Source: a virus. From it: a DNA stretch of 53,056 nt. The notes below the pieces were generated by a model. That model saw only the letters and a program-made list of their open reading frames with translations. It was not told the DNA's origin and did not search any database. How positions within the stretch are numbered: the stretch's first letter is position 1; each line of letters begins with the position of its first letter. The DNA lies in the IMG/VR virus record IMGVR_UViG_3300033074_002003; one strand, 5' to 3'. Below, piece by piece: positions 39 to 48,256 of the stretch. The translations under genes were made by a program, and so were the position numbers.

Positions 39-314
39 GTGAAGCCCTCGAAGGCAGAGGTGGCAGAGGCGTTCGCCACACTTGTCCTCACGGAGGCCCG
101 CCTCGAACAGGGCGCTCGAGCCGTGATTCGTGGCGGTGGAGAGCTGACATTCGACATGAAGCTGATGGGCCCATTCATCGCGTGGGTGACAGGTGATGTT
201 CAGAAAGAGTGCGAAGCAGAACTGGAAGCGTCTTCTCTCACGTGGAAAGCAGTATCGCGTGAGGTCGTAGACGCGGCGAAGAAGTGGTACGTTTCGAAGA
301 TCGAAGGAAAGTGA
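39..314 (+). CDS. hypothetical protein (reading frame open to window edge; may be 5'-truncated)
   Basis: ORF with no in-frame stop upstream to position 3; no recognisable motif. Confidence 0.4.
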   Translation: MKPSKAEVAEAFATLVLTEARLEQGARAVIRGGGELTFDMKLMGPFIAWVTGDVQKECEAELEASSLTWKAVSREVVDAAKKWYVSKIEGK

Positions 315-320
315 GGAACA

Positions 321-878
321 ATGGCTACGAGAAAGAAGAAGCCCACTGGTACGAAGACCGCCGCCCTGGCGCCGAGCAACTCACAGTTTCCCGTGAGTGA
401 CGATCGTTCGCCCGGGAACCGGCCCGTCGCGGCGCCCGCCGAACTCGCAGACACCAATCGCGAGATCAAGCCTGGACACACGTACTTCACCTACATCCGC
501 GACGAGCGCAAGCAGCCTATCGCGACGCTCGCGATCATTGCCGACGAAGAGCACATCGGATGGTGTTCTGTCGGAGTCGCTGTCTGTGCACCGGGTGACA
601 AGTTCGATCGCAAGGTGGGTCGCAATATCGCCGAAGGCAGAGCGAAGAAACTCCTCACCGACGACAGTCGCCTCTCGCGCGAGTTCTCGTTCTACGAAAA
701 CGAGAATGACCTGAACAGTCACCTGTACAAGTCGGGAATTCCCGCTATCCTCAGCTCACTTGCTCTCGGTGGCCTGTCGAAGGCCAACAAGCAGTACAGG
801 GCTCGCGAGGGTTTCAGGCCCTTCCCGCGCAGGGTCGCCACAGCCGCTCTGCGCCAGGCAGTCGAACAGTCGTTCTAG
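321..878 (+). CDS. hypothetical protein
   Basis: 185-aa ORF, GGAACAATG leader; basic N-terminus; 'GWCSVGVAVCAPGDKFDRKVGRNIAEGRA' motif; no confident family. Confidence 0.5.
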   Translation: MATRKKKPTGTKTAALAPSNSQFPVSDDRSPGNRPVAAPAELADTNREIKPGHTYFTYIRDERKQPIATLAIIADEEHIGWCSVGVAVCAPGDKFDRKVGRNIAEGRAKKLLTDDSRLSREFSFYENENDLNSHLYKSGIPAILSSLALGGLSKANKQYRAREGFRPFPRRVATAALRQAVEQSF

Positions 879-887
879 GAGAAGATA

Positions 888-1817
888 ATGCAACAAGTCA
901 TCATGACGGTTGGAATTCCCGCTAGTGGGAAATCGACCTGGGCGAAGAAGTGGGTTCTCGAGTCGTCGGGCGATCGGAAGAGGATCAACCGCGACGACCT
1001 CCGTCTCATGGTGGATGCCGGTGTCTGGTCGCCTGACAACGAGAAGTTCATCCTGAAGCTTCGCGACCAGTTCGTCCTCGCCTCACTCCGCGCCGGGAAG
1101 AGCGTCGTGATCGACGACACGAACCTCAGGAGCGACAACTTCACGAAGCTCTGCACGCTGATCCGTGGCGCGGGTCTCACGGCACTCGTACTCGAGAAGA
1201 TGTTTCCTGTCGACGTCGAAGAGGCTGTCGCTCGAGACGCGAAGCGCACTCCGAACGTCGGTGAGGCCGTCGTTCGCGATATGTGGAAGAAGTTCATCGG
1301 GAAGCACGGGAAGCTCCGCGACCCGCGCACGGAGGCGATCGTCGCCGCGTTCCCGAGCAACGAGACGATCGATCGGATCGAGGGAATCAAGGATGCGATC
1401 ATCTGTGACCTCGACGGTACCCTCGCGCTCATGGGAGATCGATCGCCGTACGACGCGAGCAGGTGTGACGAGGTGGACCTTCCGAACCATCCAGTGATCG
1501 AGTGTGTGAAGGCAATGCACGAGGCGGGTCACGGCGTGATCTTCATGTCGGGGCGTGAGGACAAGGATCGTGCCGCGACAGAGAGGTTCATCTCGAAGTG
1601 GGTGAAGGGTCGGAACGGCGATGTCATTCCACACGCGCTCTTCATGAGGCCCACAGGTGACCAGCGCAAGGACAACATCGTGAAGCGCGAGCTCTTCGAC
1701 ACTTGGGTGCGTGGGAAGTACAATGTGAGGTTCTGCCTCGATGATCGCGATCAGGTCGTCGAAGGGTGGCGGGCGATGGGACTGACGTGTTTTCAGGTTC
1801 AGCCCGGCGCGTTCTGA
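888..1817 (+). CDS. pnk: polynucleotide 5'-kinase/3'-phosphatase (T4 Pnk-like)
   Basis: N-terminal P-loop 'GIPASGKST'; C-terminal HAD phosphatase motif 'ICDLDGTLA'; size 309 aa matches bifunctional Pnk. Confidence 0.8.
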   Translation: MQQVIMTVGIPASGKSTWAKKWVLESSGDRKRINRDDLRLMVDAGVWSPDNEKFILKLRDQFVLASLRAGKSVVIDDTNLRSDNFTKLCTLIRGAGLTALVLEKMFPVDVEEAVARDAKRTPNVGEAVVRDMWKKFIGKHGKLRDPRTEAIVAAFPSNETIDRIEGIKDAIICDLDGTLALMGDRSPYDASRCDEVDLPNHPVIECVKAMHEAGHGVIFMSGREDKDRAATERFISKWVKGRNGDVIPHALFMRPTGDQRKDNIVKRELFDTWVRGKYNVRFCLDDRDQVVEGWRAMGLTCFQVQPGAF

Positions 1818-1833: not shown

Positions 1834-2109
1834 GTGCCCTACACAAATGTCGATCAGTGGGACATCGTACCCGGAGACGTCGTCTCGTCGGTGAACAATG
1901 AGACGATCGCTGACTACGAAGCACCGTGTGGTCGAATTGACGACTGGCGTCTTCACCGCGGCACAGGTGTATGCAAGAGGATCGCCGAGATACAAACCAA
2001 ACGCACGGTAGAACGGTTCTTTCAGATTAAGTGGCTTGAGGGTACCACCGTGTGGCACAGATTCGGAGATCTTAGGAGAGTAACCTCCCGCGCCGGAACG
2101 AAGGAGTAA
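1834..2109 (+). CDS. hypothetical protein
   Basis: 91-aa ORF in gene-dense + strand run. Confidence 0.35.
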   Translation: MPYTNVDQWDIVPGDVVSSVNNETIADYEAPCGRIDDWRLHRGTGVCKRIAEIQTKRTVERFFQIKWLEGTTVWHRFGDLRRVTSRAGTKE

Positions 2110-2112
2110 ATT

Positions 2113-2334
2113 ATGATCGTTACGACGTCGACATCAATTAAGATTGAAACAGGAAGTGCGCTTCAGATGCACTTCTTGCGTTCTTCGGAGCACCCGGGTT
2201 GTGTTCAAGTGACAATTGACGGTAACGTTTTTCAGCTCCCGGGAAATAAAGAAGAGGCTGAAATGTTTATTGCTGCTTATCGCAGATGCATCAACCATGA
2301 GATCGGTTACAGGAAACGAGAGGTCGAGCGTTAA
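2113..2334 (+). CDS. hypothetical protein
   Basis: 73-aa ORF immediately after previous stop. Confidence 0.35.
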   Translation: MIVTTSTSIKIETGSALQMHFLRSSEHPGCVQVTIDGNVFQLPGNKEEAEMFIAAYRRCINHEIGYRKREVER

Positions 2335-2354
2335 ATTCTTGCTTGTGACGTGAG

Positions 2355-4166
2355 ATGTACTTATTTGTCGAAATGAAACCGAAAAACAGCACTTCGCCGC
2401 GTGAGGTGCATCTCACAGCGCCGTCAAATACGCTCCGAGCCAACGCGTGGGGACAGGCCTTTCACCTGACAGAACCCGCGCCACCGTATGACGGTACGCC
2501 CGAGTCGATCCTTGCGATCGTATCGTGGTTGGGTGTAGAGAAAAGCGGGCGCTGGCGGCCCAAACCCGGGACGACGTATTGCAACGTCTATGCGTACGAT
2601 CTCTGCAACGCGATCGGAGCATATGCCCCTCGCGTGTGGTGGGGCAACAAATCAGACGCTGAACCCGTTCTGGGCAAAAATGTCTTTGAACTCAGCGCAA
2701 ATGCCCTCTACTCGTGGTTTGTGCAGCACAGCGAAGAGTTTGGTTGGAAGAAAGTTAAGACCCTAGACGAGCTGCAGGATGCGGCCAACGCTGGCAACGC
2801 CGCGGTCATTGTCGGGAAGAACAAGAACGCACAGGCAAGCGGACACATCTGTTGTGTCGTTCCCGAGTCTGGAAAGCTGATGGCAAAGCGCGTGGATGGG
2901 CAAGTCGTCCTACCCGTGCAGAGCCAAGCCGGTGCCTACAACTACGAACTGTCACTCATCAGTGAGTGGTGGAAGAGCCCGAGTTTTGCGGAGTTTGGGT
3001 TCTGGGTTCACTCGAAACAGGTTGCTGTACAACCCGCAGAAGAGCCACAGCCCGTAACGATCGTAGTGGATGCGACGCAACCTGTTCCCTATTTACCCCA
3101 CATGGGAACGAAGAACGCTCCTTCGGGATTCGGCGTCTGGATCGCATTTCAGGGAATGATCGGTTCGATCGACGAATCGATCAGGCGCATGAAAGCGATC
3201 GGTGCAACGTGGGTCGCGCCTCGCGCGGGCGTGGGCTCGAAGCGTGACGGAAACTGGACGCCCGAAAAAGCTCGTGCGGCGATTGCAAAGTACCACGCAG
3301 CGGGCATCAAAGTTTTTCCGTGGGTCTACTCGCGGCCCGACAGTTACCTTGAGGAGATTCCTGTCTTCAAAGCCCTCATGGATGAGGGCGCCGACGGAGT
3401 GTTCATCGACGCCGAAATTGAGTGGGAGGGTCCTGGTGGCGTGCACCGCGCCGCGGCGGCCGATTTCATGGAGAGACTCAGAGTTGAGCTCGGTGAAGGG
3501 TGTTTCATCGCTCACGCGCCCTTCCCGTACGTTCTCTGGCACCAGGATTTTCCGTACGTCGAGTTCGGAAGCAGGTGTGATGCCGTCTGTGACCAGCTCT
3601 ACTGGACAGAGATCAACGGCGCGAGCGCAGCTTCTCACGTCGAGAACACTGGGAAGCAGTGGGCTGAGTATCTCAAGAAGAATCCGACAGCGTGTAAGCT
3701 GCGTTCGCCGATCGGTATCACCTACGGCTCGGAGCTGAAGGGCGTCGCGAAGCCGCCCCCGGGCAAGATGCGCCCCGAGGACCTCAGATTCTTCATCGAG
3801 TGGTGCAAGAAGCAGTGCCTGCCATTCTACTCGATCTACTCGCTTGAGGCTTCGACGCCCGAGTCGATCGCAGTGCTCCAGGAACTCGCTGGGACGGATA
3901 CGTCAGTGTGCTTCGATGCGCCGCCAGAGGGATCGACATTTCCGCAGAGCAACTGGTCGACGTACCGCAACATCTTCAATGCGTGGCAGACACGCGATGA
4001 CGCTCACGACTTGATCGGTTCGCTCGCGGGTCCAGACGTACCAGAGCAGAAGAAAGAGGACGCGCTTCTCGCGCCAACAGATGTGCAGGGCCTTCCGTGG
4101 TACATTTCGTTCATTCGTTTTATACTTGGATTGCTAGCCGCACTCTTTAGCAAGAAATCAGGGTGA
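2355..4166 (+). CDS. putative multi-domain peptidoglycan hydrolase (Cys/His peptidase-like N-domain + glycoside-hydrolase-like TIM-barrel domain, C-terminal TM helix)
   Basis: 'GTTYCNVYAYDLCNAIG' ... 'SGHICCVVPE' Cys-His arrangement like CHAP/NlpC-P60; middle 'GFGVWIAFQGMIGS...IKVFPWVY...GADGVFIDAEIEW' resembles GH25/Rv2525c-like barrels; C-terminal 'WYISFIRFILGLLAALF' hydrophobic helix. Confidence 0.5.
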   Translation: MYLFVEMKPKNSTSPREVHLTAPSNTLRANAWGQAFHLTEPAPPYDGTPESILAIVSWLGVEKSGRWRPKPGTTYCNVYAYDLCNAIGAYAPRVWWGNKSDAEPVLGKNVFELSANALYSWFVQHSEEFGWKKVKTLDELQDAANAGNAAVIVGKNKNAQASGHICCVVPESGKLMAKRVDGQVVLPVQSQAGAYNYELSLISEWWKSPSFAEFGFWVHSKQVAVQPAEEPQPVTIVVDATQPVPYLPHMGTKNAPSGFGVWIAFQGMIGSIDESIRRMKAIGATWVAPRAGVGSKRDGNWTPEKARAAIAKYHAAGIKVFPWVYSRPDSYLEEIPVFKALMDEGADGVFIDAEIEWEGPGGVHRAAAADFMERLRVELGEGCFIAHAPFPYVLWHQDFPYVEFGSRCDAVCDQLYWTEINGASAASHVENTGKQWAEYLKKNPTACKLRSPIGITYGSELKGVAKPPPGKMRPEDLRFFIEWCKKQCLPFYSIYSLEASTPESIAVLQELAGTDTSVCFDAPPEGSTFPQSNWSTYRNIFNAWQTRDDAHDLIGSLAGPDVPEQKKEDALLAPTDVQGLPWYISFIRFILGLLAALFSKKSG

Positions 4167-4187
4167 CGAGCGCAGCGGGACACCAAG

Positions 4188-4898
4188 ATGTACGTCTCCT
4201 GTACCGTAGACCCAAACTTGCACATAGACGTCGAGACGTGTCAGGTCAAACAACCTATCGTTGTTCGTGTCAATGAGTTTGATGAGAAATCGGCGCAGAT
4301 CTTTGCGAGACAGGTTTCTATCGCAGAGGACATGGGACAGCCAATAATCCCTGTCGTGATAGACTCATACGGTGGAGATGTCTACAGTCTCCTCGCGATG
4401 GTGGACGTCATCAAATCTTGCAAGGCGATCGTGGCTACGATCGTCGAGGGAAAGGCGATGAGCTGCGCTGCCGTACTGTTCTCTTGTGGCACAGAGGGCT
4501 ATCGATTCGTCTCCGAGCACGCGACAGTGATGATCCATGACACATGGCAGGAAGACGATCGCCCGCGGAAAGCAGAGGATCTGAAGGTAGACGCCGCAGA
4601 ACTCGGGCGTATCAACAAGCTCTTCTACGAGATCCTCGCGGGCTCCACGGGTCACGATCCACAGTATTTCATCGATATGCTCTCGAAACACAATCGAGCG
4701 GACGTGTACTTCAGTGCGCAGGAAGCTGTGAAGCACAATATTGCGAATCACATCGGGATTCCTGACCTGACGCTCGAAGTGGCTGTGTCGTACAAGATTT
4801 CACTGACTGACGCACCCGAACAAGCTCCGCTCGCCGCATTGGTCTCAGACTTGCCGAAAAAATCCGTGCGAAAGAAAAAAGAGGCGGCACCGCGATGA
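4188..4898 (+). CDS. ClpP-like serine peptidase (S14 family)
   Basis: 'IIPVVIDSYGGDVYSLLAMVDVIKSCKAIVATIVEGKAMSCAAVLFSCG...ATVMIHD' matches ClpP core (INSPGG-like, GxAxSxA Ser, MIH His). Confidence 0.7.
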   Translation: MYVSCTVDPNLHIDVETCQVKQPIVVRVNEFDEKSAQIFARQVSIAEDMGQPIIPVVIDSYGGDVYSLLAMVDVIKSCKAIVATIVEGKAMSCAAVLFSCGTEGYRFVSEHATVMIHDTWQEDDRPRKAEDLKVDAAELGRINKLFYEILAGSTGHDPQYFIDMLSKHNRADVYFSAQEAVKHNIANHIGIPDLTLEVAVSYKISLTDAPEQAPLAALVSDLPKKSVRKKKEAAPR

Positions 4899-5116
4899 AC
4901 GCTGAGAATCGCAAGAGGATCGTAGAGGCGGCACGACGTATGGGCGACGAGCTGAACGGTCGCCTCCCGGAACACCGAAATCACCCTGACGGTAGAAATT
5001 CGTATGCCCACGTCTGGAGCGTCCTGAAGTCGCGATTCGGTGACTACAAAGAGCGGCCTGACGATGAGTTTGACGATATCATGCGCGCTATCGAGTCGTG
5101 TAAGTCAGATTTGTAA
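4895..5116 (+). CDS. hypothetical protein
   Basis: 73-aa ORF, ATGA-type junction with upstream gene. Confidence 0.35.
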   Translation: MNAENRKRIVEAARRMGDELNGRLPEHRNHPDGRNSYAHVWSVLKSRFGDYKERPDDEFDDIMRAIESCKSDL

Positions 5117-5179
5117 ATTTCCCACTTGAGCGGTATGATGTGCCTACTATGGGCGACCGTACCAGGGGGAAGAACTGAC

Positions 5180-6394
5180 ATGGGCGGGAATGCAAGGGCG
5201 ATCGATCGCGCCACAGGCAAAGAGATGCTCTTTGAGGGCAAACTCGCACACGCCGAGCGCATACACACCACTGCATTTGACGGGAAGTTCGCTTGGTACG
5301 TTCTCAAGACGCTTCTGCTGCTCGATCACGAGTGTGATAGCATCTGGGCTCAGAGCTCATTTGCACACCACGAGCTCTTCGGAAAGTGCCGGGCGTTCTC
5401 GGGTTCGTCAAGGTTGCTAATGGCATCTGAGACGAGCGGAAACAGAACACCTGAGCACTTGAGAGTGTTAGGTGATATCGATGTGATGATCCCACACGAG
5501 AAATTGGGTGAGCTGTTTGACGTTCTCGCGAGACTAGAGGGAAAGTCGCTGTGGCACAATCGTGTAACGTACGTCGGGCAGAACAAACACCAGCAGTCGG
5601 GACATCAGATCAACGCGATCTTCGCGTTTGCGCATCCGGAGTCGAGTTGGGAGCAGTTTGTTCAAATCGATTTTGAGGGTGTCGAATTCGATGCCAACGG
5701 GGTGCCAACTGAGTTCAGCGAGTTCGCACACTCCACATCACCCGCCGATGCTGACGCTGGCATCAAGGGCGTCGCGCACAAATATCTCCTGACAAATTTG
5801 ATCCGCGCCGCGTCAGAGCTGCAAGATGCGCTCGTATTGACGGAGAAATCTCCACCCCCGCCAGACTGTCGCATCTCGATGTCAAAGAAAATTCCCAGAG
5901 AATACGCGTTCTCTGTCGATCGCGGCCTCAGAAAGAAGCTCGAACCGGTCATGTACAACGGCGCGCAGTTTCGTGTCGGTGATAAGAGGGTATTTCGCGA
6001 GCTGGCGACAGACGAAAGCATCTACGATACTAACATCGCGAATATTGCGAAAGCTGCGCTGGGGAAGGGCGTTCACCAGAGCTACACTCATCCCTTTGAT
6101 GCGGGCGCGTGGACAATGTGGTCATTCGTGGGACTGTTGTTCCTCTGTCGTCACTACAGAAGCAACGCGATTATGTCGCGCGCGTTCGAACTGATGCTCG
6201 TAGAGAACCTCTACGGACCCGGTGCGCAGAAGCTCTCTCGTACGAGCTGTTGTGTAGATCAGGACGTGAAGAACAAGATCATCGAGAGGATGTACGTCGC
6301 GTTCCCGCACCTGAAAGAAGAGTTCGGTGAGCGTGTCGATGAGATGTCGCGCAAGTTTCAGGAGAACTACTTCGATGCTCGATCTCTCGATTAA
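5180..6394 (+). CDS. hypothetical protein, possible Pol-beta-type nucleotidyltransferase fold
   Basis: GGGGGAAG SD 8 nt before ATG at 5180; 'FSGSS...RVLGDIDVMIP' loosely resembles G[SG]...DxD NTase motif; located between Pnk and RNA ligase. Confidence 0.4.
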   Translation: MGGNARAIDRATGKEMLFEGKLAHAERIHTTAFDGKFAWYVLKTLLLLDHECDSIWAQSSFAHHELFGKCRAFSGSSRLLMASETSGNRTPEHLRVLGDIDVMIPHEKLGELFDVLARLEGKSLWHNRVTYVGQNKHQQSGHQINAIFAFAHPESSWEQFVQIDFEGVEFDANGVPTEFSEFAHSTSPADADAGIKGVAHKYLLTNLIRAASELQDALVLTEKSPPPPDCRISMSKKIPREYAFSVDRGLRKKLEPVMYNGAQFRVGDKRVFRELATDESIYDTNIANIAKAALGKGVHQSYTHPFDAGAWTMWSFVGLLFLCRHYRSNAIMSRAFELMLVENLYGPGAQKLSRTSCCVDQDVKNKIIERMYVAFPHLKEEFGERVDEMSRKFQENYFDARSLD

Positions 6395-7751
6395 GAAGGC
6401 AAACCTATCACAACAGCTGCCCCGCAGTTGTGAAGTCACAGAGAAGTACGACGGCACGAAACTGTCACTGCTGCGTGCTGGAGACGAAACTCTCCTGTCT
6501 TACAAGGGAATCATTATCGATCCGGTCGTTTTCCCGCGCGAGAAATCGGCGCTCGATGAGATTCGCGAGTTCTCGTGTGGGTACTCTCAGTACGCTCTTG
6601 TAGCTTCTGATGCACAAGGAAGCTTCGGTGGGTGTTTCGACGGCGCGGAGATGCTCTTCGAGTTCATCCAGCGCAAGCCGACAGTACTCCGCGAGTACGA
6701 CAGATATCACGATTTGATCGCAATCGCCTCAGCAGCATCAGATTATTTGCTTTCAGGCCAACGAGTTTACACTCTCCCGAGAACAGTGTGGTATCCGTGC
6801 TACCCAGAGAAGAACGGATGGCTTCCCGTCTTCCAGACACCAGCGAAAATTCTAGTTCCTGGGCAGGTGAGAACATACATTGACCTCAAAGAATATATTG
6901 AGGGCACCCAGTCGTCACTTGGAGGTGTTGCAGAGGGATGTGTTGTTCATAACGGGGCTACGGGTGAACTCACAAAGATCGTTCGAGACGACCAGTGCGA
7001 TCGTACGGTAAGAGCGAAGAAAAAAGCCATGACTGTTGGGTTTGATCGCGATCAGAAGTATTGGAACGCTGTGATCGGTTCGGCCTCACGTGTGGTCTCG
7101 AATTTCGAACACCCGTTTTTTTTCGACGGAGCACGACTGGAAGCGGCCCACGCTGCAGAGTTTCACGACTTCGTCAACGTGTCGCCACACAATCGGATGC
7201 GCGTCGCCGACGACATCTTCTTGTCAGCGACAATTGCGAGCTCGACAGTGAGGACATTCCCAGGCAACAAGATAGGATTTTACCCTGGCGCTTTCAAACC
7301 CCTGCATCGCGGGCACTGGAACGTCATCAAGCGTGCTTCTGAAGAGTGCGACACCGTGTTGGTCGTCGCTTCTGAGTCGGATCGCTGTGAAATTTCGCAC
7401 TCGCAGATGTTCTTGGCATGGAAGAAAATCTTCTTCGAGAAGTTGCCGCGCAATGTCGTGTTTCGCTTCTCGAAGAATCCGATACAAGAGTGCAAGAACG
7501 AGATCGAGAACATCCAAAAATACACGGGAGCTCGTACGACGATTTACACGGGCGAAGACGATGCAGACAAGCGACGGTCTGCATTTTTGGGTCAGCACGT
7601 CTCGATTGTCCCGCGCAACGGTGTCTCAAGCACAGAATTTCGTGCGGCGCTTCGACAGAGGATCCAACGAAGTGCACCCGACGAATTCATGCCAGAGTGT
7701 CTAAGCAGTCTAGAGTCGCGGCTGTACGTAGAACTTTTCCGTGACCGTTGA
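6375..7751 (+). CDS. RNA ligase (ATP-dependent, KxDG family) fused to C-terminal HIGH-motif nucleotidyltransferase (NadD/NMNAT-like) domain
   Basis: AGGAGA SD before ATG 6375; ligase motif I 'EKYDGTK', motif IV 'AEGCVVH', motif V 'LTKIVRD'; C-terminal 'GFYPGAFKPLHRGHWNV' (HxGH) and terminal 'VSSTEFR' (NadD ISSTxIR-like). Confidence 0.65.
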   Translation: MLDLSIKKANLSQQLPRSCEVTEKYDGTKLSLLRAGDETLLSYKGIIIDPVVFPREKSALDEIREFSCGYSQYALVASDAQGSFGGCFDGAEMLFEFIQRKPTVLREYDRYHDLIAIASAASDYLLSGQRVYTLPRTVWYPCYPEKNGWLPVFQTPAKILVPGQVRTYIDLKEYIEGTQSSLGGVAEGCVVHNGATGELTKIVRDDQCDRTVRAKKKAMTVGFDRDQKYWNAVIGSASRVVSNFEHPFFFDGARLEAAHAAEFHDFVNVSPHNRMRVADDIFLSATIASSTVRTFPGNKIGFYPGAFKPLHRGHWNVIKRASEECDTVLVVASESDRCEISHSQMFLAWKKIFFEKLPRNVVFRFSKNPIQECKNEIENIQKYTGARTTIYTGEDDADKRRSAFLGQHVSIVPRNGVSSTEFRAALRQRIQRSAPDEFMPECLSSLESRLYVELFRDR

Positions 7752-7792
7752 AGTTTGCCATTTCACGCTTACTTATCGTAGGTGGAAATCAA

Positions 7793-8266
7793 ATGAAAAT
7801 CAAGCTCAGCGAAGTTCGCAAGATTGTCAGAGAGGAACTCGCGGCGAAGTCGCAGAGGTCGGGCGCCAAGAATCTCAATGAGAACATCGGGTTTGCCACT
7901 GCACGCCCAAAGGGCGTTCTTCCGCAGACGTACGAGGACTTCCGCAAGTGTTTCGAGGCATCGTTCGTGAAGCTCTCACTGCACGGCATCGCCGGGAAGG
8001 TGATGAACCTCAACGAGAGCAATAGCGTCATTGACGTCCTGAGTGAGATGTGGACGATTGTCGAGCGTGAGAACAACTCTGGACTCACTGGTGCTCCGAA
8101 GCCACACTTTGCCGAAGGAAGGCAGTTCTGGGACTATTTCGGACCCTCGTTCGAGGCACCCCTCGCGAGGCTCATCGAATCGCAGCTCCCGGGAACGTCT
8201 CTTGCGAAGTCAAATACCAAAGAGCTTGCAAAGAACGTTATCGACATTTTGAAGGCTGGGTCATGA
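7793..8266 (+). CDS. hypothetical protein with conserved N-terminal leader 'MKIKLSEVRKIVREEL' (paralog family member A)
   Basis: AGGTGG SD 6 nt before ATG 7793; N-terminal 16 aa shared with 16580(-) and 47867(+) genes. Confidence 0.55.
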   Translation: MKIKLSEVRKIVREELAAKSQRSGAKNLNENIGFATARPKGVLPQTYEDFRKCFEASFVKLSLHGIAGKVMNLNESNSVIDVLSEMWTIVERENNSGLTGAPKPHFAEGRQFWDYFGPSFEAPLARLIESQLPGTSLAKSNTKELAKNVIDILKAGS

Positions 8267-16202: not shown

Positions 16203-16580
16203 TCAATCTTCAAATACGACCTGTTCAAGAGCAGTTACTGGAATTCGATCGGGTGTCCAATACGCACCGTCACCCGCGTCAAGATCGTGGTAGAAAACAG
16301 TGCCAGTGGGCAATTTGTTGACGTGGACAATAAAAGCTTCGCTTTGCCCAGCGTGGCCGATTATGTCATACATGTCGAGAGCTTCCCTTAGACTATCCAT
16401 GAAGAAAATTGCCGGAACGGGTGTGTCCCAGTTGTTGTAGGGTATCAATCCGTTCTGAAGAATTAGAGGAACATTTCGCGAGGATGTAGCGTGATAGAGC
16501 ATGTCAGGAACATTCTTCGCTTTTTTCATCTCCATTGTTTCTCTAATGAGTTTTCGAAGTTCGTTGAGCGAAATTTTCAT
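16203..16580 (-). CDS. hypothetical protein with N-terminal leader 'MKISLNELRKLIRETM' (paralog family member B)
   Basis: internal ATG at 16580 gives leader matching 7793 and 47867 genes; 'LYHATSSRNVPLILQNGL' region. Confidence 0.5.
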   Translation of the reverse strand: MKISLNELRKLIRETMEMKKAKNVPDMLYHATSSRNVPLILQNGLIPYNNWDTPVPAIFFMDSLREALDMYDIIGHAGQSEAFIVHVNKLPTGTVFYHDLDAGDGAYWTPDRIPVTALEQVVFED

Positions 16581-16612
16581 GCATTTAGGTATGTGAACAG
16601 GAGTCGGTACTA

Positions 16613-17378: not shown

Positions 17379-18040
17379 AAGGGAACGTCTGGGAGTACAT
17401 CTCACAGTCGATAAATCTCTACCAGAACGCCGGGTACGAGTACATCGACGTCCCGTGGATCGTCACTCGTGAGGCACTCGCGGTTACATTGCCTCCCTAC
17501 AAGACGGGATTCAGTATCTTTGAGACCATACGTCTCAACAGCGAAGCGAATTGTCTCGTGGGTTCTGCGGAGCAATCGTTCATTGACATGATGATTTCCG
17601 GACACCCAGCGATGCGGGCGGGCGGTCGCTATGTTGCTGCATCTCCCTGCTTCAGGGACGACGCGCCCGACGAACTTCACAAGACGTGGTTCTTCAAGGT
17701 CGAGCTCATTGACGTGTTCCCGAGCGCTCTTACTCGCGTCGGTCCGAAGCGCGAGGAGGCGTGGAGAATGTGCAACACCGCACTGCGGGTGATGAGGGAC
17801 GTCGCGGGAGCGGTTGACGATGAGATGAAGATCGTCGAGACGCCCGAGGGCTTCGATATCGAATACTGCGGCATCGAAGTGGGTTCGTACGGCGTCCGTG
17901 AGCTCAATCATCCCAAAGCGAAGTACGAGTGGGTTTACGGTACAGGGATGGCGATTCCGAGGTTTCAGATCGCGTCCGATATTCACCTGAAAGAATCTCG
18001 TAAGTACTGGGACAGATTTGTTGAGCCTACATCGGAATAG
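17375..18040 (+). CDS. class-II aminoacyl-tRNA-synthetase-like catalytic core protein (AsnA/EpmA/HisZ-like paralog)
   Basis: 'ASPCFRDDAPDELHKTWFFKVELI' matches class II motif 2 (fRxE...H..eF..lE); GTGA start/stop overlap with lipoprotein gene. Confidence 0.5.
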   Translation: MKGNVWEYISQSINLYQNAGYEYIDVPWIVTREALAVTLPPYKTGFSIFETIRLNSEANCLVGSAEQSFIDMMISGHPAMRAGGRYVAASPCFRDDAPDELHKTWFFKVELIDVFPSALTRVGPKREEAWRMCNTALRVMRDVAGAVDDEMKIVETPEGFDIEYCGIEVGSYGVRELNHPKAKYEWVYGTGMAIPRFQIASDIHLKESRKYWDRFVEPTSE

Positions 18041-18049
18041 TTAGGGTTT

Positions 18050-19998: not shown

Positions 19999-21297
19999 AT
20001 GACCCACTTGTTGATTGCCCCACAGTATTCAAATTACAATCGTGATGGCATCTACATGCTTCATGCAGACTCAACCGCAAACATGACGTTCAACAAGCTT
20101 CGTGTCATGTTGCAACTCGATCCCGAATTCACGGCAGATGTTCTTGTCCCGCCGCGCGAGCTCACCCAGATTCAGCCCGAAGACCTGACAGCCTCGATTC
20201 CTGGTATCGAGCGGGTGACGTTTCTGAGGCATGGGCTCGCTCCCAACGCAGCCCGCACGCGCTACGATTTCCGGTACGAGGAGATGAAACAGATCCTCGC
20301 GAGTAGGGAAAAGTACACGCACGCGTACATCATGGATCCGATGCACGTGAGGAACTACAAGGCATTGTTCTTCCTCGAGCTGAAGTACATGCCGAAGATC
20401 GTGTGCAACTCTCACTTCATCGATGATCCCGACAATCCCGTCGTAGCGAAGGACATTCAGTACTGGTTCGGGCAGGTAGAGGGCCATGTGAAGGCTGACC
20501 TGAACGTCTGGCAGTGCAAATCTGCTCAGGATGTTTTCGAGCGCGCGGCGATCAAACACGGCCTCAATCCAGAGTTCGTCGAGGGACTCTCTGAGAAGAG
20601 CTACTGTTGGGACGCAGGGTACTCTCACTACGAGATGTCACAGCCCGTGAACGAGGTACTCGCGAGGAAGAGGTTCCTGCGCGATTTCAGTGACATCGAT
20701 CCAGACAAGTTCCGCGTCTTCGTTCCCAATCGCATGGGCGGGAAGATCAACGGCGTCGAGAGGTCGCTCGACTACACGAACGCCGGGAAATTTGTCCTCG
20801 AGGTGACGAACGACGTCTGGACCCGGCGACAGGATTTCGTCGTCATTGCCGGAAATCCGAACCAGAAGATTACGAACGCAGAGATCGAGGAGCGCGTCCC
20901 GGCGTACTTCAGGATGCTCCGCGACGGCACTTTTGAGCGCGAGGAGTATCGCTACGTCGCGAAGAAGTGTGACATCGTCGTGGGCGCGTTCACAGTCGAC
21001 TCTTACGGTGGGACGGCGTGGCGCGAGTGTGTCGACCAGGGGTGTATGCCAGTGCTCGCGGACTGTTACGAGCAGCACGTCATCCTCGAGGCGGCGCAGT
21101 GGCCGATGGAGATGCGCATTAGGCCCGATCTGAGTAATATGGCGTCAGCTCTCGAGGCGACGATGGACTACCTGCGATCTCTCGAGAAGCGCGGGCCGGC
21201 AAATCCGCTTCTCGACAGGATCAAGAAGATCGTTCGGGAGGAGTGCTCTTTCGAGGAGACGACCCGTCCCGCGATGGTCGCGATGGGAATGTTGTAG
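19999..21297 (+). CDS. GT-B fold glycosyltransferase
   Basis: C-terminal 'FVVIAGNPNQK...CDIVVGAFTVDSYGGTAWRECVDQGCMPVLAD' resembles GT4-type EX7E donor-binding domain. Confidence 0.5.
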   Translation: MTHLLIAPQYSNYNRDGIYMLHADSTANMTFNKLRVMLQLDPEFTADVLVPPRELTQIQPEDLTASIPGIERVTFLRHGLAPNAARTRYDFRYEEMKQILASREKYTHAYIMDPMHVRNYKALFFLELKYMPKIVCNSHFIDDPDNPVVAKDIQYWFGQVEGHVKADLNVWQCKSAQDVFERAAIKHGLNPEFVEGLSEKSYCWDAGYSHYEMSQPVNEVLARKRFLRDFSDIDPDKFRVFVPNRMGGKINGVERSLDYTNAGKFVLEVTNDVWTRRQDFVVIAGNPNQKITNAEIEERVPAYFRMLRDGTFEREEYRYVAKKCDIVVGAFTVDSYGGTAWRECVDQGCMPVLADCYEQHVILEAAQWPMEMRIRPDLSNMASALEATMDYLRSLEKRGPANPLLDRIKKIVREECSFEETTRPAMVAMGML

Positions 21298-21320
21298 CGC
21301 GATCGTGCTACTTAGTCGTC

Positions 21321-26443: not shown

Positions 26444-27319
26444 TTGTTAGACGGTGATGACACAACTGATTCATCGAACATAGTTAAAGCTATGAGCAAA
26501 TTTGTTGGTCACTTTAAGTGTGAATTTTGTCTGGAAGACTTCGAAAAAGAAGTGCATTCGAGTGCGAAGAAAATGCCACGATTTTGCAGCAAATCGTGTG
26601 GTAGCAAGTGGCTACACGCAAATGGCAAAAAGTGTACACTAAACAGCAAGACGACATACGAATGGTGGATTGAAAAACACGGACAAGAAGAAGCTGATAG
26701 ACGATTTAGTGCTTGGAGACAAAAGATCTCAGAGCGTACGTCTGGCGAAAACAATGCGATGTTTGGTAAGCACGCACACACTCACGGGTTGAAAAAATAC
26801 GCGTTCGAAAAGACGGGTAAGTCACTCGAACAGATCCATGGTGTTGAGCTAGCAAAAGATATCAAGCATAGAGTCTCAGTGAGTATGACGGGCGAAAACA
26901 ATCCTGCGTACGGGAAAGTATATCCAAATGCGGGACGATCTGTCAAGGGTCACTATAAAGGCATCTTCTTCCGAAGTCTATTTGAGTACTCGTTCTTGAA
27001 GCACCTGGAGTCAATAGGAGTCGAGTTGACAGACGTAAAGTGTGAATCGTTCAGGATTCCGTATGCTGAGGGCAGAACGTACATACCTGATTTTTATGTT
27101 CCTGAACACAAAACTGTTTACGAGGTGAAACCCTCGTCTTGGCACACTAACACAACAGTGATTGCAAAATGTGAAGCTGCAAAGAGATTTCTGGCTGAAA
27201 AGGGACTTGAGTTCAAGATGGTCACCGAGCTTGATTTCCCGAAGATACGCTTCGACGAAGCACGCAAAGATCCAAACGTAGTTTGGAAGGAGAAGTCATT
27301 TGAGCACTTCAAGAAGTAA
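26444..27319 (+). CDS. free-standing homing-endonuclease-like protein (Zn finger + PD-(D/E)XK), paralog of 23134..23946
   Basis: 'FKCEFCLEDF...RFCSKSCGSKW'; 'RTYIPDFYVPEHKTVYEVKPSSW'; AT-rich island. Confidence 0.55.
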   Translation: MLDGDDTTDSSNIVKAMSKFVGHFKCEFCLEDFEKEVHSSAKKMPRFCSKSCGSKWLHANGKKCTLNSKTTYEWWIEKHGQEEADRRFSAWRQKISERTSGENNAMFGKHAHTHGLKKYAFEKTGKSLEQIHGVELAKDIKHRVSVSMTGENNPAYGKVYPNAGRSVKGHYKGIFFRSLFEYSFLKHLESIGVELTDVKCESFRIPYAEGRTYIPDFYVPEHKTVYEVKPSSWHTNTTVIAKCEAAKRFLAEKGLEFKMVTELDFPKIRFDEARKDPNVVWKEKSFEHFKK

Positions 27320-28089: not shown

Positions 28090-28940
28090 GCGAATACGTC
28101 AGGTCACAAGACGCGTGCGCTTTCATTGAGTCGTTGGAGGACGCGTCTGTCGGTCTTGTCCTGATTGACCCGCCGTACTACGGCATCGTTGACGATTCGT
28201 GGGACAACCAGTGGGCGTCAGAGGACGACTACGTGAGCTGGCTGTCTGTCATGTGTTACGCCGCGCGAAAGAAGCTGACGCCGACCGGATCGCTGCTCGT
28301 ATTCGGCGGTGTTGGGAAGCACGGTTCGCACCCGTTCTTCAGGGTCATTTCGGAGCTTGAGAAGAAGTTCCACTTTCGCAACCTGATCACGTGGAAGAAG
28401 AGGCGTGCCTACGGGAAGAAGTTCAACTATCTTCATTGTCGGGAGGAAATTGTTTGGTATTCCAAATCAAGTGTAGAGTCAGAAGTGACTTTTAACATTC
28501 CATATCTCACTGAAAAGCGCGGGTATGCAGGATTTAACAAGAAATATCCAGCGAAAAGTCCCTATTATCGAGTCTCTAACGTCTGGGCAGATATTGGCGA
28601 ACTAATGCGTCCCAAGCGTACTGCTGAAAAACCCATACCCCTTCTGGAGAGGTTGATACTCACACATTCAAATCCCAATGATCTTGTTGTTGATTTTTTT
28701 GCAGGGACGGGCTCCACGGGCGTGGCGGCACTGAAGAACGGTCGCAGATTTCTTGGCTGTGATATGGACAACACTGCTGTACAAATGGCAAATGCGCGCT
28801 GCATTTCTGTTTACGATTCAACTAGTTATCATCATGGCGCGAACACAGAAGACAGTAATTTATGTGTATCTGATCCTATGCAAGATCAACAACAAGAGAT
28901 ATGTGGGGATCACTGCAAAAACAGTACAGAAAAGATTTAA
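28086..28940 (+). CDS. DNA methyltransferase, beta-class (DPPY first; N6-adenine or N4-cytosine)
   Basis: 'LVLIDPPYYG' motif IV near N-terminus, 'VVDFFAGTGSTG' motif I near C-terminus; 3' ~35 codons overlap the GIY-YIG gene. Confidence 0.7.
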   Translation: MSEYVRSQDACAFIESLEDASVGLVLIDPPYYGIVDDSWDNQWASEDDYVSWLSVMCYAARKKLTPTGSLLVFGGVGKHGSHPFFRVISELEKKFHFRNLITWKKRRAYGKKFNYLHCREEIVWYSKSSVESEVTFNIPYLTEKRGYAGFNKKYPAKSPYYRVSNVWADIGELMRPKRTAEKPIPLLERLILTHSNPNDLVVDFFAGTGSTGVAALKNGRRFLGCDMDNTAVQMANARCISVYDSTSYHHGANTEDSNLCVSDPMQDQQQEICGDHCKNSTEKI

Positions 28941-41342: not shown

Positions 41343-41365
41343 GCGCAGCTTCATATTTAGCCTCG

Positions 41366-42625
41366 ATGGAAAAGTCAGAGTTGCTCCGCGAGGTCATCAA
41401 GACAATCCTCCAAGAGGAGGATTATGGCGGCATCGGTGCGGGCGGGTACTACGGCGGCTACGGTGGTGGCTCTGGCGGTTATGGGTACGGAATGGGTGGT
41501 TGGGGCGGGGAGAGCGTTCTCAGCGTCTTCGGCACTCCATTCCTTGACGTATTCAAGACAGCGGCTGGTTCCGGCAAAGAGGTCGCGAAGCAGGCGAAGG
41601 GCCTCGTCAGGACGGGCATCGAGGCGTCGCTGTCGCTCGTCCTCCCGTTCGTGAGCGGCGAGTACGGAAAAATCGCCAAAGAGACGCACGAAGAGGTGCT
41701 GAAGGTGAAGAAAGAGTACGAGGGTGTCTACAAGAAGAACCTCGACGCGTTCTTCAACACTGACCTCGTCACGCTCGCGTTCTTCTTGAACCCGGCGGCA
41801 GTCGTCACGGGTGCCGCATTCGACAGGTTCCTGTACACAGCACCCGACGCGGCGATCAGTGCCCTCGGATGGTTCATTCCAGTTTCGGGCCAGAAAATGT
41901 GGGATCGCACGCTAAAAGCTCTCGATCCAGAGCGCCTCCAGAGGATCTTGAAGACAGCGTCGGGTCGCGGTGAGAGCACGAGGCTCATCGTCTGGGACGA
42001 CAAGAACAGAAGGAAGCTCTACTCGAACGTCCGCCGCGCGATGGGAATCGAGGCAGACCCGAATGACAGGGCGACAGAGTCTCTTTCTCTGAAGGGCGTA
42101 GTGATCCTCGAGGACGGTTCGGCGGGAACAACGTTCCAAGACGTCGTGAAGGGGATTTTCCACGATCCGACGATTGTTGACGCGATGACGTCGTCGGAAC
42201 AGGCGAAGCGCCTGAAGGGCGTCGCGACAAAGATGATCTCTCGGAGGCTCGGTAGGGTCGTAGACCTCGTCAGAAAAATCACGTCTGCTCCGACACCGGA
42301 CTCTATGGGTGCGCCCAAACTTTCTGAGGGTGACATGCCGAAGGTGAAGCAGGAGGTGAAGGAGCGGATCAGCAAGTCTCTCGCCGCCGAGCTCGAGGCG
42401 ATGGTGAAGCAGGGCGTCGACCCGAAAGAGACGGGCGTGCAGAAGATGTACGATCAGGCGATCTCAAACATCACAAACCTTCCTGTGAACATCGGGGCAC
42501 CTGAGAGTAATGTCTCCATGCAACAGCAGGGAGATAAAGATACACATGTCCAACACGGCAAAGAAGACGGACACGACGGGACAGGAACAGCCGGACGAGC
42601 TGGGCGCCCTCAGGGAGCTAGTTGA
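41366..42625 (+). CDS. hypothetical protein with Gly/Tyr-rich N-terminal segment
   Basis: 'GGYYGGYGGGSGGYGYGMGGWGG'; ATG 41366. Confidence 0.4.
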   Translation: MEKSELLREVIKTILQEEDYGGIGAGGYYGGYGGGSGGYGYGMGGWGGESVLSVFGTPFLDVFKTAAGSGKEVAKQAKGLVRTGIEASLSLVLPFVSGEYGKIAKETHEEVLKVKKEYEGVYKKNLDAFFNTDLVTLAFFLNPAAVVTGAAFDRFLYTAPDAAISALGWFIPVSGQKMWDRTLKALDPERLQRILKTASGRGESTRLIVWDDKNRRKLYSNVRRAMGIEADPNDRATESLSLKGVVILEDGSAGTTFQDVVKGIFHDPTIVDAMTSSEQAKRLKGVATKMISRRLGRVVDLVRKITSAPTPDSMGAPKLSEGDMPKVKQEVKERISKSLAAELEAMVKQGVDPKETGVQKMYDQAISNITNLPVNIGAPESNVSMQQQGDKDTHVQHGKEDGHDGTGTAGRAGRPQGAS

Positions 42626-43488: not shown

Positions 43489-43509
43489 AGCGCACGTATA
43501 TTTACGAGC

Positions 43510-43893
43510 ATGTCATCACACCTCATTCGTGAGTACGTTCGAACACTCGTGTCTGAGGTCGATGTCCTGTCACCGGACAAGGACCCGCGCATGGGTGGAA
43601 CGTCCCACGATTCTTTCGACGCACAGAAGAACCCGGCTGATCCCAACAACAAGAAGAAAATTGGGCACTCTAAGGAGTACGGGAACAAAGAGGCGACGCG
43701 AGACAAGGTGCAGAAGGTCATCGCGAAGAAGGTGAAGGGCGGCGGCATTGCGAGCGACGATGACCTTTCGCGTTACATCTCTGATCCGAAGCGCATTCGC
43801 CAAGACGGCGAATTTGAGGATGACGAGGACGTTGACCTCGCCCTCACGGCTCTCAAGATGGTTCCCGTGTCTGTTTGGCGACAGATGCAGTGA
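43510..43893 (+). CDS. hypothetical basic protein
   Basis: 127-aa ORF. Confidence 0.35.
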   Translation: MSSHLIREYVRTLVSEVDVLSPDKDPRMGGTSHDSFDAQKNPADPNNKKKIGHSKEYGNKEATRDKVQKVIAKKVKGGGIASDDDLSRYISDPKRIRQDGEFEDDEDVDLALTALKMVPVSVWRQMQ

Positions 43894-46356: not shown

Positions 46357-46373
46357 GTCGCATACTTAGTCAC

Positions 46374-47144
46374 ATGTCAGAAGAGTTCAAGTGCGGGTGG
46401 CGACCCGAACCGGCGAGCGACAAGGACTTCTCATTTGAGAGCGTGGCCGGTGCACTTCTGCAGAAAGAGTCGGGAGAGTGCGTCGACCTTCGACAGTGGT
46501 GCTCGCCGGTTGAGAACCAGTTGTCGCTGCAGTCGTGTTCTGGCAACGCTGTTGTCGGTGGGCTAGAGCTCCTTGAGAACGAGCGCGGTGACGAATTCGT
46601 AGAGCTCGCGCGCCTCTTTCCGTACTACAACGGCCGTGCAGCAATTGGCGAGACGGAAAAAGACGAGGGATGTTACATCCGTGACGTGATGAATTCTCTG
46701 TGTGCCTTCGGCGTCTGTCCGGAGGCGATCTGGCCGTATGACGTCGAGAAAGTGAAGATTCGTCCCTCGTGGAAGGCATACAGGGCCGCGTACGCACACA
46801 GGATCAAGAGCTTCTACAAGATCTTTGAGACGGGCGACGAGCTCATTGAGAGGATCAAGTCCGCGCTTCGCTGTAGGCACCCTGTCGTGTTCGGTGCGAT
46901 GGTCTACGAGGCGTTCCCGTACTACAAGAGCGGTCGGGTCGCGATGCCCGCTGGCAAGTGCCTCGGAGGCCACGCGATGCTCATTGTTGGTTTCGACAAC
47001 GTCGCGAAGACGTTCATCGTTCGCAATAGCTGGGGACCGGGCTGGGGCGAGGGCGGGTACTGTCACATGCCGTACGAGTACCTCGCTGCAGCACAGGCAA
47101 ACGACTTCTGGGTCCCGACGCTTCAGATCGAGAGGGCCGAGTGA
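46374..47144 (+). CDS. papain-like cysteine peptidase (C1 family)
   Basis: 'NQLSLQSCSGNAV' (Gln-oxyanion/Cys), 'GGHAMLIVGFD', 'NSWGPGWGEGGY' (His, Asn, Trp). Confidence 0.7.
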   Translation: MSEEFKCGWRPEPASDKDFSFESVAGALLQKESGECVDLRQWCSPVENQLSLQSCSGNAVVGGLELLENERGDEFVELARLFPYYNGRAAIGETEKDEGCYIRDVMNSLCAFGVCPEAIWPYDVEKVKIRPSWKAYRAAYAHRIKSFYKIFETGDELIERIKSALRCRHPVVFGAMVYEAFPYYKSGRVAMPAGKCLGGHAMLIVGFDNVAKTFIVRNSWGPGWGEGGYCHMPYEYLAAAQANDFWVPTLQIERAE

Positions 47145-47866: not shown

Positions 47867-48256
47867 ATGAGAATCAGACTAAGCGAACTACGCAGGCTCA
47901 TTCGTGAGGAAGTTCTCCTCGTCGAAGCGCAGATGTCAGACCCAATCGCTGTCGCTGTTGGAAATGCGCTGGTGAATCACATGAAATCGCCTGCATTTGC
48001 GAGCGAGGTGCAAAAGGGCCTCAATGGGAAGAAGGGCGATCCGGACAGGGCCGCAGATGAACTCATCACAACGCTTCCTGGGTCGCAGCTCTTCAGAGAG
48101 CCGATTTACGCCGCTGTCCGTGCAGCAGCGGGAAATGAAAACGCGCTCGGTGGTGACCTTCACAAGGCTCACGCGGCACAGAAGCAACAGTCGCAGCAGG
48201 GACAGCAGCAAGCGCCCGCACCCGCACAGCGTAGTGTTCAACAGCCCTCCGCATGA
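47867..48256 (+). CDS. hypothetical protein with N-terminal leader 'MRIRLSELRRLIREEV' (paralog family member C)
   Basis: leader shared with 7793 and 16580(-) genes; Gln-rich C-terminus. Confidence 0.5.
   Translation: MRIRLSELRRLIREEVLLVEAQMSDPIAVAVGNALVNHMKSPAFASEVQKGLNGKKGDPDRAADELITTLPGSQLFREPIYAAVRAAAGNENALGGDLHKAHAAQKQQSQQGQQQAPAPAQRSVQQPSA

Follow-up and report, generated by a model that had tools for sequence, protein, structure and literature searches.

Leader genes in the window

The DNA considered here is a stretch of 53,056 bp with 54.8% GC from the IMG/VR virus record IMGVR_UViG_3300033074_002003, the whole of which is called the window below, and its subject is a short N-terminal peptide, designated here as the leader, with which the products of three genes at positions 7793, 16580, and 47867 begin. 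The first-pass annotation of this DNA had claimed that the three genes start alike and then diverge completely, and both halves of that claim were borne out. A regular-expression scan of the six frames of the window found exactly three leader matches, those at 7793, 16580, and 47867, while a hidden Markov model (HMM) of 16 columns applied to all frames scored the three leaders at 28.9–31.2 bits and the next best segment at 5.4 bits. Past residue 16 no similarity among the three bodies was detected by BLASTP (best E about 0.8). The consensus of the three window leaders is MKIxLxE[LV]R[KR][LI][IV]RE, and the open reading frames (ORFs) that carry them are as follows (lengths in amino acids, aa).

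7793..8266, plus strand, ATG at 7793: leader gene 1, 157 aa, protein starting MKIKLSEVRKIVREEL; leader at 7793-7834, MKIKLSEVRKIVRE; ORFan body
16203..16580, minus strand, ATG at 16580: leader gene 2, 125 aa, protein starting MKISLNELRKLIRETM; leader at 16580-16539, MKISLNELRKLIRE; body assigned to the ADP-ribosyltransferase fold (Tpt1/DarT/PARP clade)
47867..48256, plus strand, ATG at 47867: leader gene 3, 129 aa, protein starting MRIRLSELRRLIREEV; leader at 47867-47908, MRIRLSELRRLIRE; ORFan body with a Gln-rich tail

The products of the 7793 and 47867 genes matched no Pfam or PHROG family. In-frame TTG or GTG codons do lie upstream of all three genes, at 7748, 16622, and 47858, and the earlier annotation had pointed out that, if those at 7748 and 16622 were the real starts, the shared motif would be internal. 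That objection was rejected, and the ATGs at 7793, 16580, and 47867 are taken as the true starts on the strength of several findings. Independent gene calls on public contigs yield the same 157-aa (7793) and 125-aa (16580) products, and the exact 157-aa protein is called from the 7793 ATG on 42 blocks of public contigs, the longest of 305,889 bp. The 7793 ATG is preceded by a Shine-Dalgarno sequence, the 47867 ATG lies 6 nucleotides (nt) past the stop codon of the preceding gene, the homologues of the 16580 protein start at the leader Met, and leader matches elsewhere always stand at ATG or GTG (233 of the 233 matches listed). The elements upstream of leader gene 1 are given below, where the 8-mer belongs to a class described in a later section.

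7780-7785, plus strand: Shine-Dalgarno sequence AGGTGG, 7 nt before the 7793 ATG
7768-7775, plus strand: 8-mer CTTACTTA

A looser pattern of the leader core occurs 6 times in window proteins, five times N-terminally and once near a C-terminus. Two of the proteins concerned, at 43510 and 41366, are probable further members of the leader family, an assignment which rests on a body family elsewhere that alternates the canonical leader with a variant of LREYIR type.

43497..43893, plus strand, ATG at 43510: probable variant-leader protein, 127 aa, MSSHLIREYVRTLVSE..., with the loose core motif at residue 6; 8-mer TATATTTA 5 nt before the ATG
41352..42625, plus strand, ATG at 41366: probable variant-leader protein, 419 aa, MEKSELLREVIKTILQEE... 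(MEKSELLREVIKTILQE); 8-mer CATATTTA 6 nt before the ATG
21208-21243, plus strand: helix-core copy LLDRIKKIVREE, 24 residues from the C-terminus of a 432-aa protein (19999-21297)

The 41366-42625 protein has a Gly/Tyr-rich low-complexity stretch, DYGGIGAGGYYGGYGGGSGGYGYGMGGWGG, after its leader-like helix and has no family match. The C-terminal copy at 21208-21243 has a parallel in another locus, where one protein (L055_970; 242-970, minus strand) carries the helix at both ends (...EMSLQELRSLVREAVRKQIKK*).

Conservation and shape of the peptide

The leader had at first been described as 16 aa long. The shared N-terminus stands, while the strongly conserved part proved to be a stretch of 14 residues, M1–E14 (M-K-I-x-L-x-E-L-R-x-[LI]-I-R-E), which is followed by a hydrophobic residue at position 16. 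Over 154 distinct copies the information content is high at positions 1–14 (M1, K2, I3, L5, E7, L8, R9, I12, R13, and E14), partial at 15–16, and at background from position 17. In the same 154 copies L8 is written with all six Leu codons and R9 and R13 with all six Arg codons, although the residues themselves are at least 95% invariant. This free synonymous variation at invariant residues, together with the nucleotide identity of only 62–69% among the three window copies, demonstrates selection on the peptide and excludes an element that acts only at the level of RNA or DNA.

Two near-invariant [LI]-x-E motifs are contained in the leader, L5-x-E7 and [IV]12-R13-E14, and conservation stops after the second. 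Both have the form of prohead-protease cleavage sites, the T4 protease being one that cuts at sites of the form [LI]-x-E. The net charge of the leader is +2, and it does not have the composition of a Sec, Tat, or lipoprotein signal peptide, 7 of its 14 residues being charged (K2, R4, E7, R9, R10, R13, and E14) and its hydrophobic runs being at most 2 residues long. No Pfam or PHROG model covers the leader, and its peptide strings were absent from the literature searched.

The leader is predicted to be helical in both AlphaFold2 models, one of which is the single-sequence model of the 16580 protein, unusable at a predicted local distance difference test (pLDDT) score of 40, and in the better model it projects from the body as a helix of low confidence that makes no contact with it. 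On a helical wheel it displays a hydrophobic face (M1/L5/L8/I12/I16), a basic stripe (K2/R9/R13), and an acidic stripe (E7/E14). Because nearly every face of the helix is conserved, this pattern suggests that it is gripped by a specific partner.

Spread among viruses and metagenomes

Outside the window the leader was sought as a back-translated degenerate DNA pattern that carries about 41 bits. It occurs in IMG/VR at 31 sites in 30 loci, where we estimate that well under one match would be expected by chance in the viral set, and a slightly relaxed pattern was found in at least 120 loci of metagenome contigs, for the most part of lake, estuarine, or sea-water origin. Prokaryotic genomes, searched over 596 Gb, gave 3 matches, all in contigs of metagenome-assembled genomes (MAGs), one of them identical to the 7793 gene of the window. 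Since the patterns used for gathering the loci included the ATG, the N-terminal position was rechecked by running the HMM, with a threshold of 13 bits and no start codon assumed, on every stop-to-stop ORF of the gathered loci.

The first-pass call for further family members was thereby answered: the window holds only the three canonical copies, and elsewhere at least 233 ORFs, spread over about 155 loci of viral and metagenomic origin, carry the leader at 13 bits or more. Among the matches listed, 228 stand at ATG and 5 at GTG, and they comprise 191 unique proteins, 165 of them complete, of 23–513 aa with a median of 111. The bodies behind the leader fall by BLAST into at least 57 clusters, 33 singletons among them. 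Two to four copies within at most 14 kb are carried by 40 of the 115 leader-bearing loci listed, and GC content ranges from 25 to 65%. A profile of 40 columns built on the leader returned only short proteins. The same body may be found with the canonical leader, with a variant, or with none, as in an ADP-ribosyltransferase (ART) family, in the family of the 16580 protein, and in the "REQLG...C[YW]GPVPP" family, in which MKIKLGQLRNLIRE alternates with LREYIR-type N-termini such as MKNKILREYIKETIRE. The leader is thus a portable, strictly terminal, and largely virus-restricted module, and to judge from its sequence it is a new, unusually conserved, and widely distributed leader of targeting type, the function of which is predicted.

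No cultured phage relative was found by megablast of 25 kb or by tblastn with five proteins or peptides, and a tblastn with the leader only was too insensitive to be conclusive. A weak match to Synechococcus phage S-SKS1 was rejected, there being no genuine leader in the 48 kb examined.

Two observations concern the sequence immediately before the leader. In the locus L039 (CAYNHH010000060.1, 3,494 bp), a contig binned into a 'Candidatus Saccharibacteria' MAG, the leader gene matches the 7793 gene of the window (7723-7840) letter for letter over its first 45 nt and over the 70 nt before it; this is either a hint at the host, a bacterium of the candidate phyla radiation, or mis-binned phage DNA. 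In eight loci (L019, L029 at 3843-4736 on the minus strand, L035, L146, L148, L106, L163, and L034) a module of about 55 aa (MPYKIRKQKCKQSDG..YVLSYTDKKGKKH..CHTSKKKARGQIAAIEAE) stands in frame before the leader on different bodies, so that in these MPYK proteins the leader Met is internal; an SD-like (Shine-Dalgarno-like) GAGAGG precedes the leader in L019 and L035. No Pfam family was found for the module, and the arrangement could represent two nested products or a cleavable pre-domain.

Proteins behind the leader

Most bodies behind the leader are ORFans with respect to Pfam and PHROG; four could be identified. For the 16580 protein the single-sequence approaches failed (phmmer against PDB gave nothing significant and the AlphaFold2 model was the one mentioned above), and its fold was settled only via a family profile. 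An exhaustive HMMER search found 18 relatives, and the profile of this family, compared with the NAD-binding ART lobe, matched Tpt1/KptA (6e3a) with E=2.2e-7 over the whole body, DarT with 5e-5, and PARP10 with 2e-3. The motif L-Y-H-x-T is invariant in the family, and Pfam PTS_2-RNA matches 11 of 12 members, all under the curated cutoff. On this profile evidence the 16580 body is assigned to the ADP-ribosyltransferase fold, in the H-Y-E (Tpt1/DarT/PARP) clade.

The commonest leader-bearing family, known from loci outside the window, is an ADP-ribosyltransferase of the R-S-E type (Alt/VIP2/cholera-toxin-like), in which both the fold and the R / S-x-S / [QE]-x-E triad were found; no R-S-E ART is present in the window at the position syntenic with L166. 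Among the other leader proteins L086_816 has a 2H phosphoesterase domain above the Pfam cutoff and L038_7187 has a PAP2 domain, while many are small proteins of 46–110 aa made up of the leader, a short conserved motif (e.g., WVPGRWYPG), and an acidic tail. Net acidic bodies account for 81%. In 20 leader proteins no virion family was found by PHROG and Pfam, a result that is uninformative since nearly all of them are ORFans.

The commonest family of mini-proteins (P0004, P0008, P0019, P0020, P0023, P0026, and relatives; L015 9720-9917) consists of the leader, EQGWVPGRWYPGxGEP, and an acidic tail with the conserved C-terminus DEDSDL, DENSDL, or DEDQNL, and a second leader gene (MKIRISELRKLIRKVIAEGPSGPGITADPTDVKGFYPYE) almost always comes next. 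Judged by sequence, their short conserved motifs look like binding epitopes.

Genomic neighbourhoods

T4 head proteins were searched against the ORFs of the gathered loci, and Pfam was consulted thereafter. In four lineages leader genes were found within morphogenesis modules of T4 type.

L008: terminase, leader gene, portal (Portal_T4, 248 bits), a 294-aa protein, and a gp21-type protease (S77 fragment) split by an intein
L026/L113: terminase; portal (Portal_T4, 208 bits); a 61-aa leader-like gene (MRKITMQELKQIVAEE) directly before the Peptidase_S77 prohead core protease (94.6 bits; cutoff 27)
L026/L113, beyond the protease: a leader-like gene; a canonical leader gene (acidic, 125 aa); a 383-aa scaffold-like protein; the Gp23 capsid (114 bits)
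L036: leader and leader-like genes on both sides of the terminase, upstream of the portal
L011/L121: gp23 capsid and gp18 sheath genes, with leader and leader-like genes in between

Homologues of gp17, gp20, gp23, or gp18 are carried by L036 and L011. Inteins in essential genes were met repeatedly in these phages: the portal of L026 (6611-11887, minus strand; 1,758 aa) contains three Intein_splicing and two HNH_3 stretches, and further intein matches lie in the S77 protease of L008 (13181-13882, plus strand) and in the ribonucleotide reductase of L167 (1171-4821, plus strand), which lies upstream of the window.

Among the non-structural settings of leader genes are a conserved block with an endolysin, cREC_REC, a sigma factor, DNA ligase, and DUF2201 in phages of ~219 kb, and a long array of small ORFans in another phage of 305 kb. 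Contigs that carry the exact proteins of the window reach 305,889 bp, a length in the jumbo-phage range. The window together with 10 kb upstream encodes PolIII alpha, a helicase, an exonuclease, DnaB, a ribonucleotide reductase with an intein, ThyX, thymidylate kinase, and thymidine kinase, as well as RlaP, RNA ligase, PNKP, MT-A70, ferritin, epimerases, and two proteases.

4188-4898: ClpP homologue (PF00574, 93.8 bits), within an RNA-repair and nucleotide-metabolism block
46374-47144: cysteine protease of the papain family (PF00112, 54.8 bits); its gene has the 8-mer element, and leader gene 3 follows about 700 bp downstream

Neither protease could be tied to leader processing. The first-pass annotation had considered that the leader might be cleaved by the ClpP-like protease, an idea that the setting of this gene does not support; where a relevant protease is visible, it is Peptidase_S77. 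ClpP was also rejected as a prohead protease, as its neighbours include no portal or capsid.

Judged from coordinates only, the window (1834-3101, compared with 4354-5310 of the 305,889-bp reference contig, L001) appears to have about 1.3 kb extra between the PNKP gene and a 354-aa gene (3102-4166), so that it shows one ORF of 603 aa (2355-4166), whose N-terminal part is uncalled in L001. In addition, leader-bearing phages often encode a homologue of IF-1 (PF01176, 80.8 bits; 22 loci), a GroEL-like chaperonin (20 loci), and a set of PrkA, DUF444 (YeaH), and SpoVR-like proteins, for example, at L119 5088-5459, at L029 781-1068, 1785-3425, and 6958-11400, and in about 20 further loci. At about 2860-2909 of L009 (also in L018, L021, and L080) a tRNA-like T-arm, GGTTCGATTCCTGT, is situated just upstream of a 99-aa leader gene.

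A promoter-like 8-mer upstream of leader genes

Many leader genes and some other genes are preceded, 5-6 nt before the ATG or GTG and with no Shine-Dalgarno sequence, by an 8-mer of the form [N]ATA[N]TTA or [N]CTA[N]TTA. The window contains 13 such sites, of which 9 stand directly before ORF starts, each of the nine at 5-6 nt, against a mean of 0.5 in Markov shuffles.

3088-3095, 18036-18043, 21307-21314, 26479-26486, 28821-28828, 41352-41359, 43497-43504, and 46361-46368, plus strand: 8-mer sites, some of them derived from ATG positions
about 50071-50078, minus strand: 8-mer site
16586-16593, minus strand: one-base variant 8-mer CATACCTA, 5 nt before the 16580 ATG, which has no Shine-Dalgarno sequence

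The T4 late promoter is TATAAATA at -13 to -6 (PMC1524935), and the window 8-mer resembles it. The geometry of the element would place the transcription start at or next to the A of the ATG and would thereby imply leaderless mRNAs, with which the phage IF-1 may be connected. In other loci the 8-mer precedes the endolysin gene (12 of 16) and leader families, and it was absent before the genes of GroEL, IF-1, sigma factor, DUF2201, and ligase; the sheath and tail genes of L011 have an 8-mer of this class upstream. This distribution, as read from sequence, is consistent with late expression of the leader genes.

A proposed head-loading tag and its alternatives

Taken together, these data point to a prohead-core targeting propeptide, similar in action to the capsid-targeting sequence (CTS) of T4 and not homologous to it, as the reading of the leader to be preferred, with a probability that we put at roughly 0.5. 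According to this model the tag would form a short, exposed amphipathic helix of net charge +2 at the start of many unrelated cargo proteins. During head assembly it would dock on a conserved part of a T4-type prohead core (the scaffold, the portal, or the inner shell surface) and so enclose the cargo; a prohead protease of the gp21 family (Peptidase_S77) would then cut the tag after E14 and/or E7, in the [LI]-x-E context. The mature cargo, that is, ADP-ribosyltransferases of two classes, a 2H phosphodiesterase, a PAP2 phosphatase, and many small acidic proteins, would be ejected with the DNA into the next host and act there before any phage gene is expressed. On this model the window's own phage would have a head of T4 type. 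The first-pass suggestion of a T4-like sorting or processing signal is retained as regards a portable terminal module under peptide selection, with cargo from enzyme classes for which packaging in the head is known or predicted (PMC9503650) and a place in S77 head modules in four lineages, while no sequence kinship with the T4 CTS was found.

Several points weigh against this model. The neighbours of most leader genes, those of the three window genes included, are genes of replication or metabolism or small ORFans, and in the window with 10 kb upstream no head or tail gene and no S77 protease was recognised. However, the T4 alt and ip genes are also scattered, for which reason scattered positions are weak evidence against packaging. 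The bodies are about 81% net acidic, whereas the internal proteins of T4 are basic. In some proteins the helix stands inside the chain, after the MPYK module, or at the C-terminus, positions that would suit a general docking helix no less than a propeptide that is cleaved off. That the leader hardly varies among very different phages goes beyond the conservation reported for the T4 CTS and would suit a universally conserved target in the host as well, and the leader has no sequence similarity to T4 propeptides.

The first alternative, which we regard as unlikely, is that of a retained intracellular docking helix that would hold unpackaged effectors at a single conserved hub, for example, RNA polymerase, the ribosome, a chaperone, or a structure built by the phage. 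Near-invariant residues on all faces of the helix in phages of 25–65% GC are what a very conserved partner would call for, and the many leader genes in non-structural or early-looking arrays of small genes, the internal and C-terminal copies, the absence of contact between leader and body in the AlphaFold2 model, and the mostly acidic bodies agree with it as well. It leaves unexplained, however, that conservation ends exactly at the Glu of [LI]-x-E, that leader genes stand between terminase, portal, S77 protease, and capsid genes in four lineages, and that leader and endolysin genes have an upstream element in common.

A second possibility, to which we give rather poor odds, is that leader proteins are themselves parts of the prohead core, scaffold, or inner body, joined through their common helix. 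The small, very acidic leader proteins in L026 at the positions of gp67, gp68, and gp22 around the S77 protease would suit such a co-assembly module, as would the several copies per genome and the protein with a helix at both ends, but enzymes (ARTs, a 2H phosphodiesterase, and a PAP2 phosphatase) would hardly be expected as subunits of a scaffold. This proposal overlaps the head-loading model and differs from it only in the partner of the helix.

Decidedly improbable is an N-terminal degradation tag that an AAA+ protease such as ClpXP, perhaps with the phage ClpP, would read in order to time the removal of the proteins. The ClpP homologue of the window is genuine, and the Met-basic-hydrophobic start of the leader bears a loose likeness to one class of N-terminal motifs recognised by ClpX. 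A degron, though, is short and degenerate, whereas the leader consists of 14 near-invariant residues; moreover, the ClpP gene lies in its RNA-repair and nucleotide-metabolism block, no ClpP was seen in the other leader-bearing loci examined, and the head-module context would go unexplained.

It is still harder to credit that the peptide is functionless and the signal is one of nucleic acid, be it a 5' coding element for leaderless mRNAs or a recombination cassette. The 8-mer found 5-6 nt before the ATG of many leader genes with no Shine-Dalgarno sequence, and the leaderless mRNAs that it implies, would speak for such an element, but besides the selection on residues rather than on synonymous sites described above, the leader also occurs behind a Shine-Dalgarno sequence (7793), within an operon (47867), and internally, and non-leader genes use the same 8-mer. 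Finally, a chance match, excluded because a pattern of about 41 bits recurs hundreds of times, or diverged paralogues that keep only the N-terminus deserve hardly any weight, the bodies being of non-homologous folds (ART, 2H phosphoesterase, and PAP2) and the same bodies being found also without the leader.

If the head-loading model is taken further, a single near-invariant 14-residue tag might be the common loading signal of a large uncultured radiation of aquatic phages, from T4-type myoviruses of ~40-60 kb to jumbo phages of >300 kb, which would use it to pack changeable effectors into the head, namely, ARTs of two classes, a cyclic-nucleotide/2H phosphodiesterase, a PAP2 phosphatase, and acidic mini-proteins by the dozen; this extension is offered tentatively and with somewhat less confidence than an even chance. 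In a stronger variant the basic amphipathic helix might in addition help acidic cargo to pass the ejection conduit or, after entry, steer it to a target in the host. Were the leader a head-loading signal, every ORF starting with it would be a candidate injected effector, which would allow proteins of anti-defence and host takeover to be found in uncultured phages from sequence only; the docking partner in the prohead core might come to light through comparative and co-evolution analysis, and a compact portable tag for the packaging of foreign proteins into phage capsids would be at hand. If the helix instead docks onto a host hub, it would point to a vulnerable site that is conserved in hosts and targeted by many phages.

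Comparison with known systems

The closest documented counterpart in function is the T4 system, whose CTS has the sequence MKTYQEFIAE. In T4 this sequence of about 10 aa is sufficient to load green fluorescent protein (GFP) into the core, gp21 removes small N-terminal peptides from IPI–III and from the packaged ART Alt, and the CTS is reported to be conserved only in IPII and IPIII (PMC9958956). The T4 cargo, from which the tag is cut by gp21, includes the packaged ADP-ribosyltransferase Alt and anti-defence proteins (PMC3012670, PMC9958956, PMC5694885). Like the propeptides of IPI–III and Alt, the leader is a short N-terminal peptide in the range of 10-20 aa that stands on diverse proteins; its conserved part ends at a Glu, as those propeptides do, and like them it precedes ARTs. 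In four lineages it occurs in head modules of the gp21 family. Unlike the T4 CTS it is longer and far more conserved, across a GC content of 25–65% and genomes from about 40 to over 300 kb, its cargo is mostly acidic, and its packaging and cleavage are predictions. No sequence similarity to the T4 CTS or to the propeptides of gp23, gp24, gp67, or gp68 was found: the start of T4 gp24, MAKINELLRE, is similar by eye and unsupported by the HMM, which reached at most 5.1 bits against T4 head proteins and the six-frame T4 head region, a search outside which the T4 ip genes themselves lay.

Jumbo phages provide a second parallel. In SPN3US the head proteins gp53 and gp54, two diverged paralogues, begin with the same 15 residues, MANFVKSKLARESVE, which include cleavage motifs at AxE-12 and SxE-15, and they are processed by a protease of gp21 type; phiKZ gp93 is cut at SLE-13 (PMC5694885). 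The leader resembles these propeptides in its length, its two Glu sites, and its jumbo-phage setting. It differs in that gp53 and gp54 are paralogues (34% identical) in one lineage, whereas the bodies behind the leader are unrelated folds in many lineages, and in that P3 is occupied by Ala, Ser, or Gly in phiKZ and SPN3US and by Leu or Ile in the leader.

In the study of Iyer and Aravind it was argued that phage ARTs, 2H, and related enzymes are frequently packaged in the head and injected (PMC9503650), and the same enzyme classes as in MuF- and portal-fused effectors and polyvalent proteins (PMC9503650) are found behind the leader. The MuF- and portal-fused effectors are, however, targeted by a whole structural domain, in contrast to a peptide of 14 residues. 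Outside the phages, the cargo-loading peptides of encapsulins are likewise short terminal tags that guide unrelated enzymes into a shell of HK97 fold, although they are usually C-terminal, have different sequences, are uncleaved, and involve no ejection into another cell.

The localisation of proteins into the T4 scaffolding core has been called still "mysterious" (PMC9958956). Compared with the T4 CTS, a short tag of low conservation known from a single lineage, the leader is far better defined and more widespread, it comes with hundreds of natural cargo fusions, and its invariant positions point to a specific receptor.

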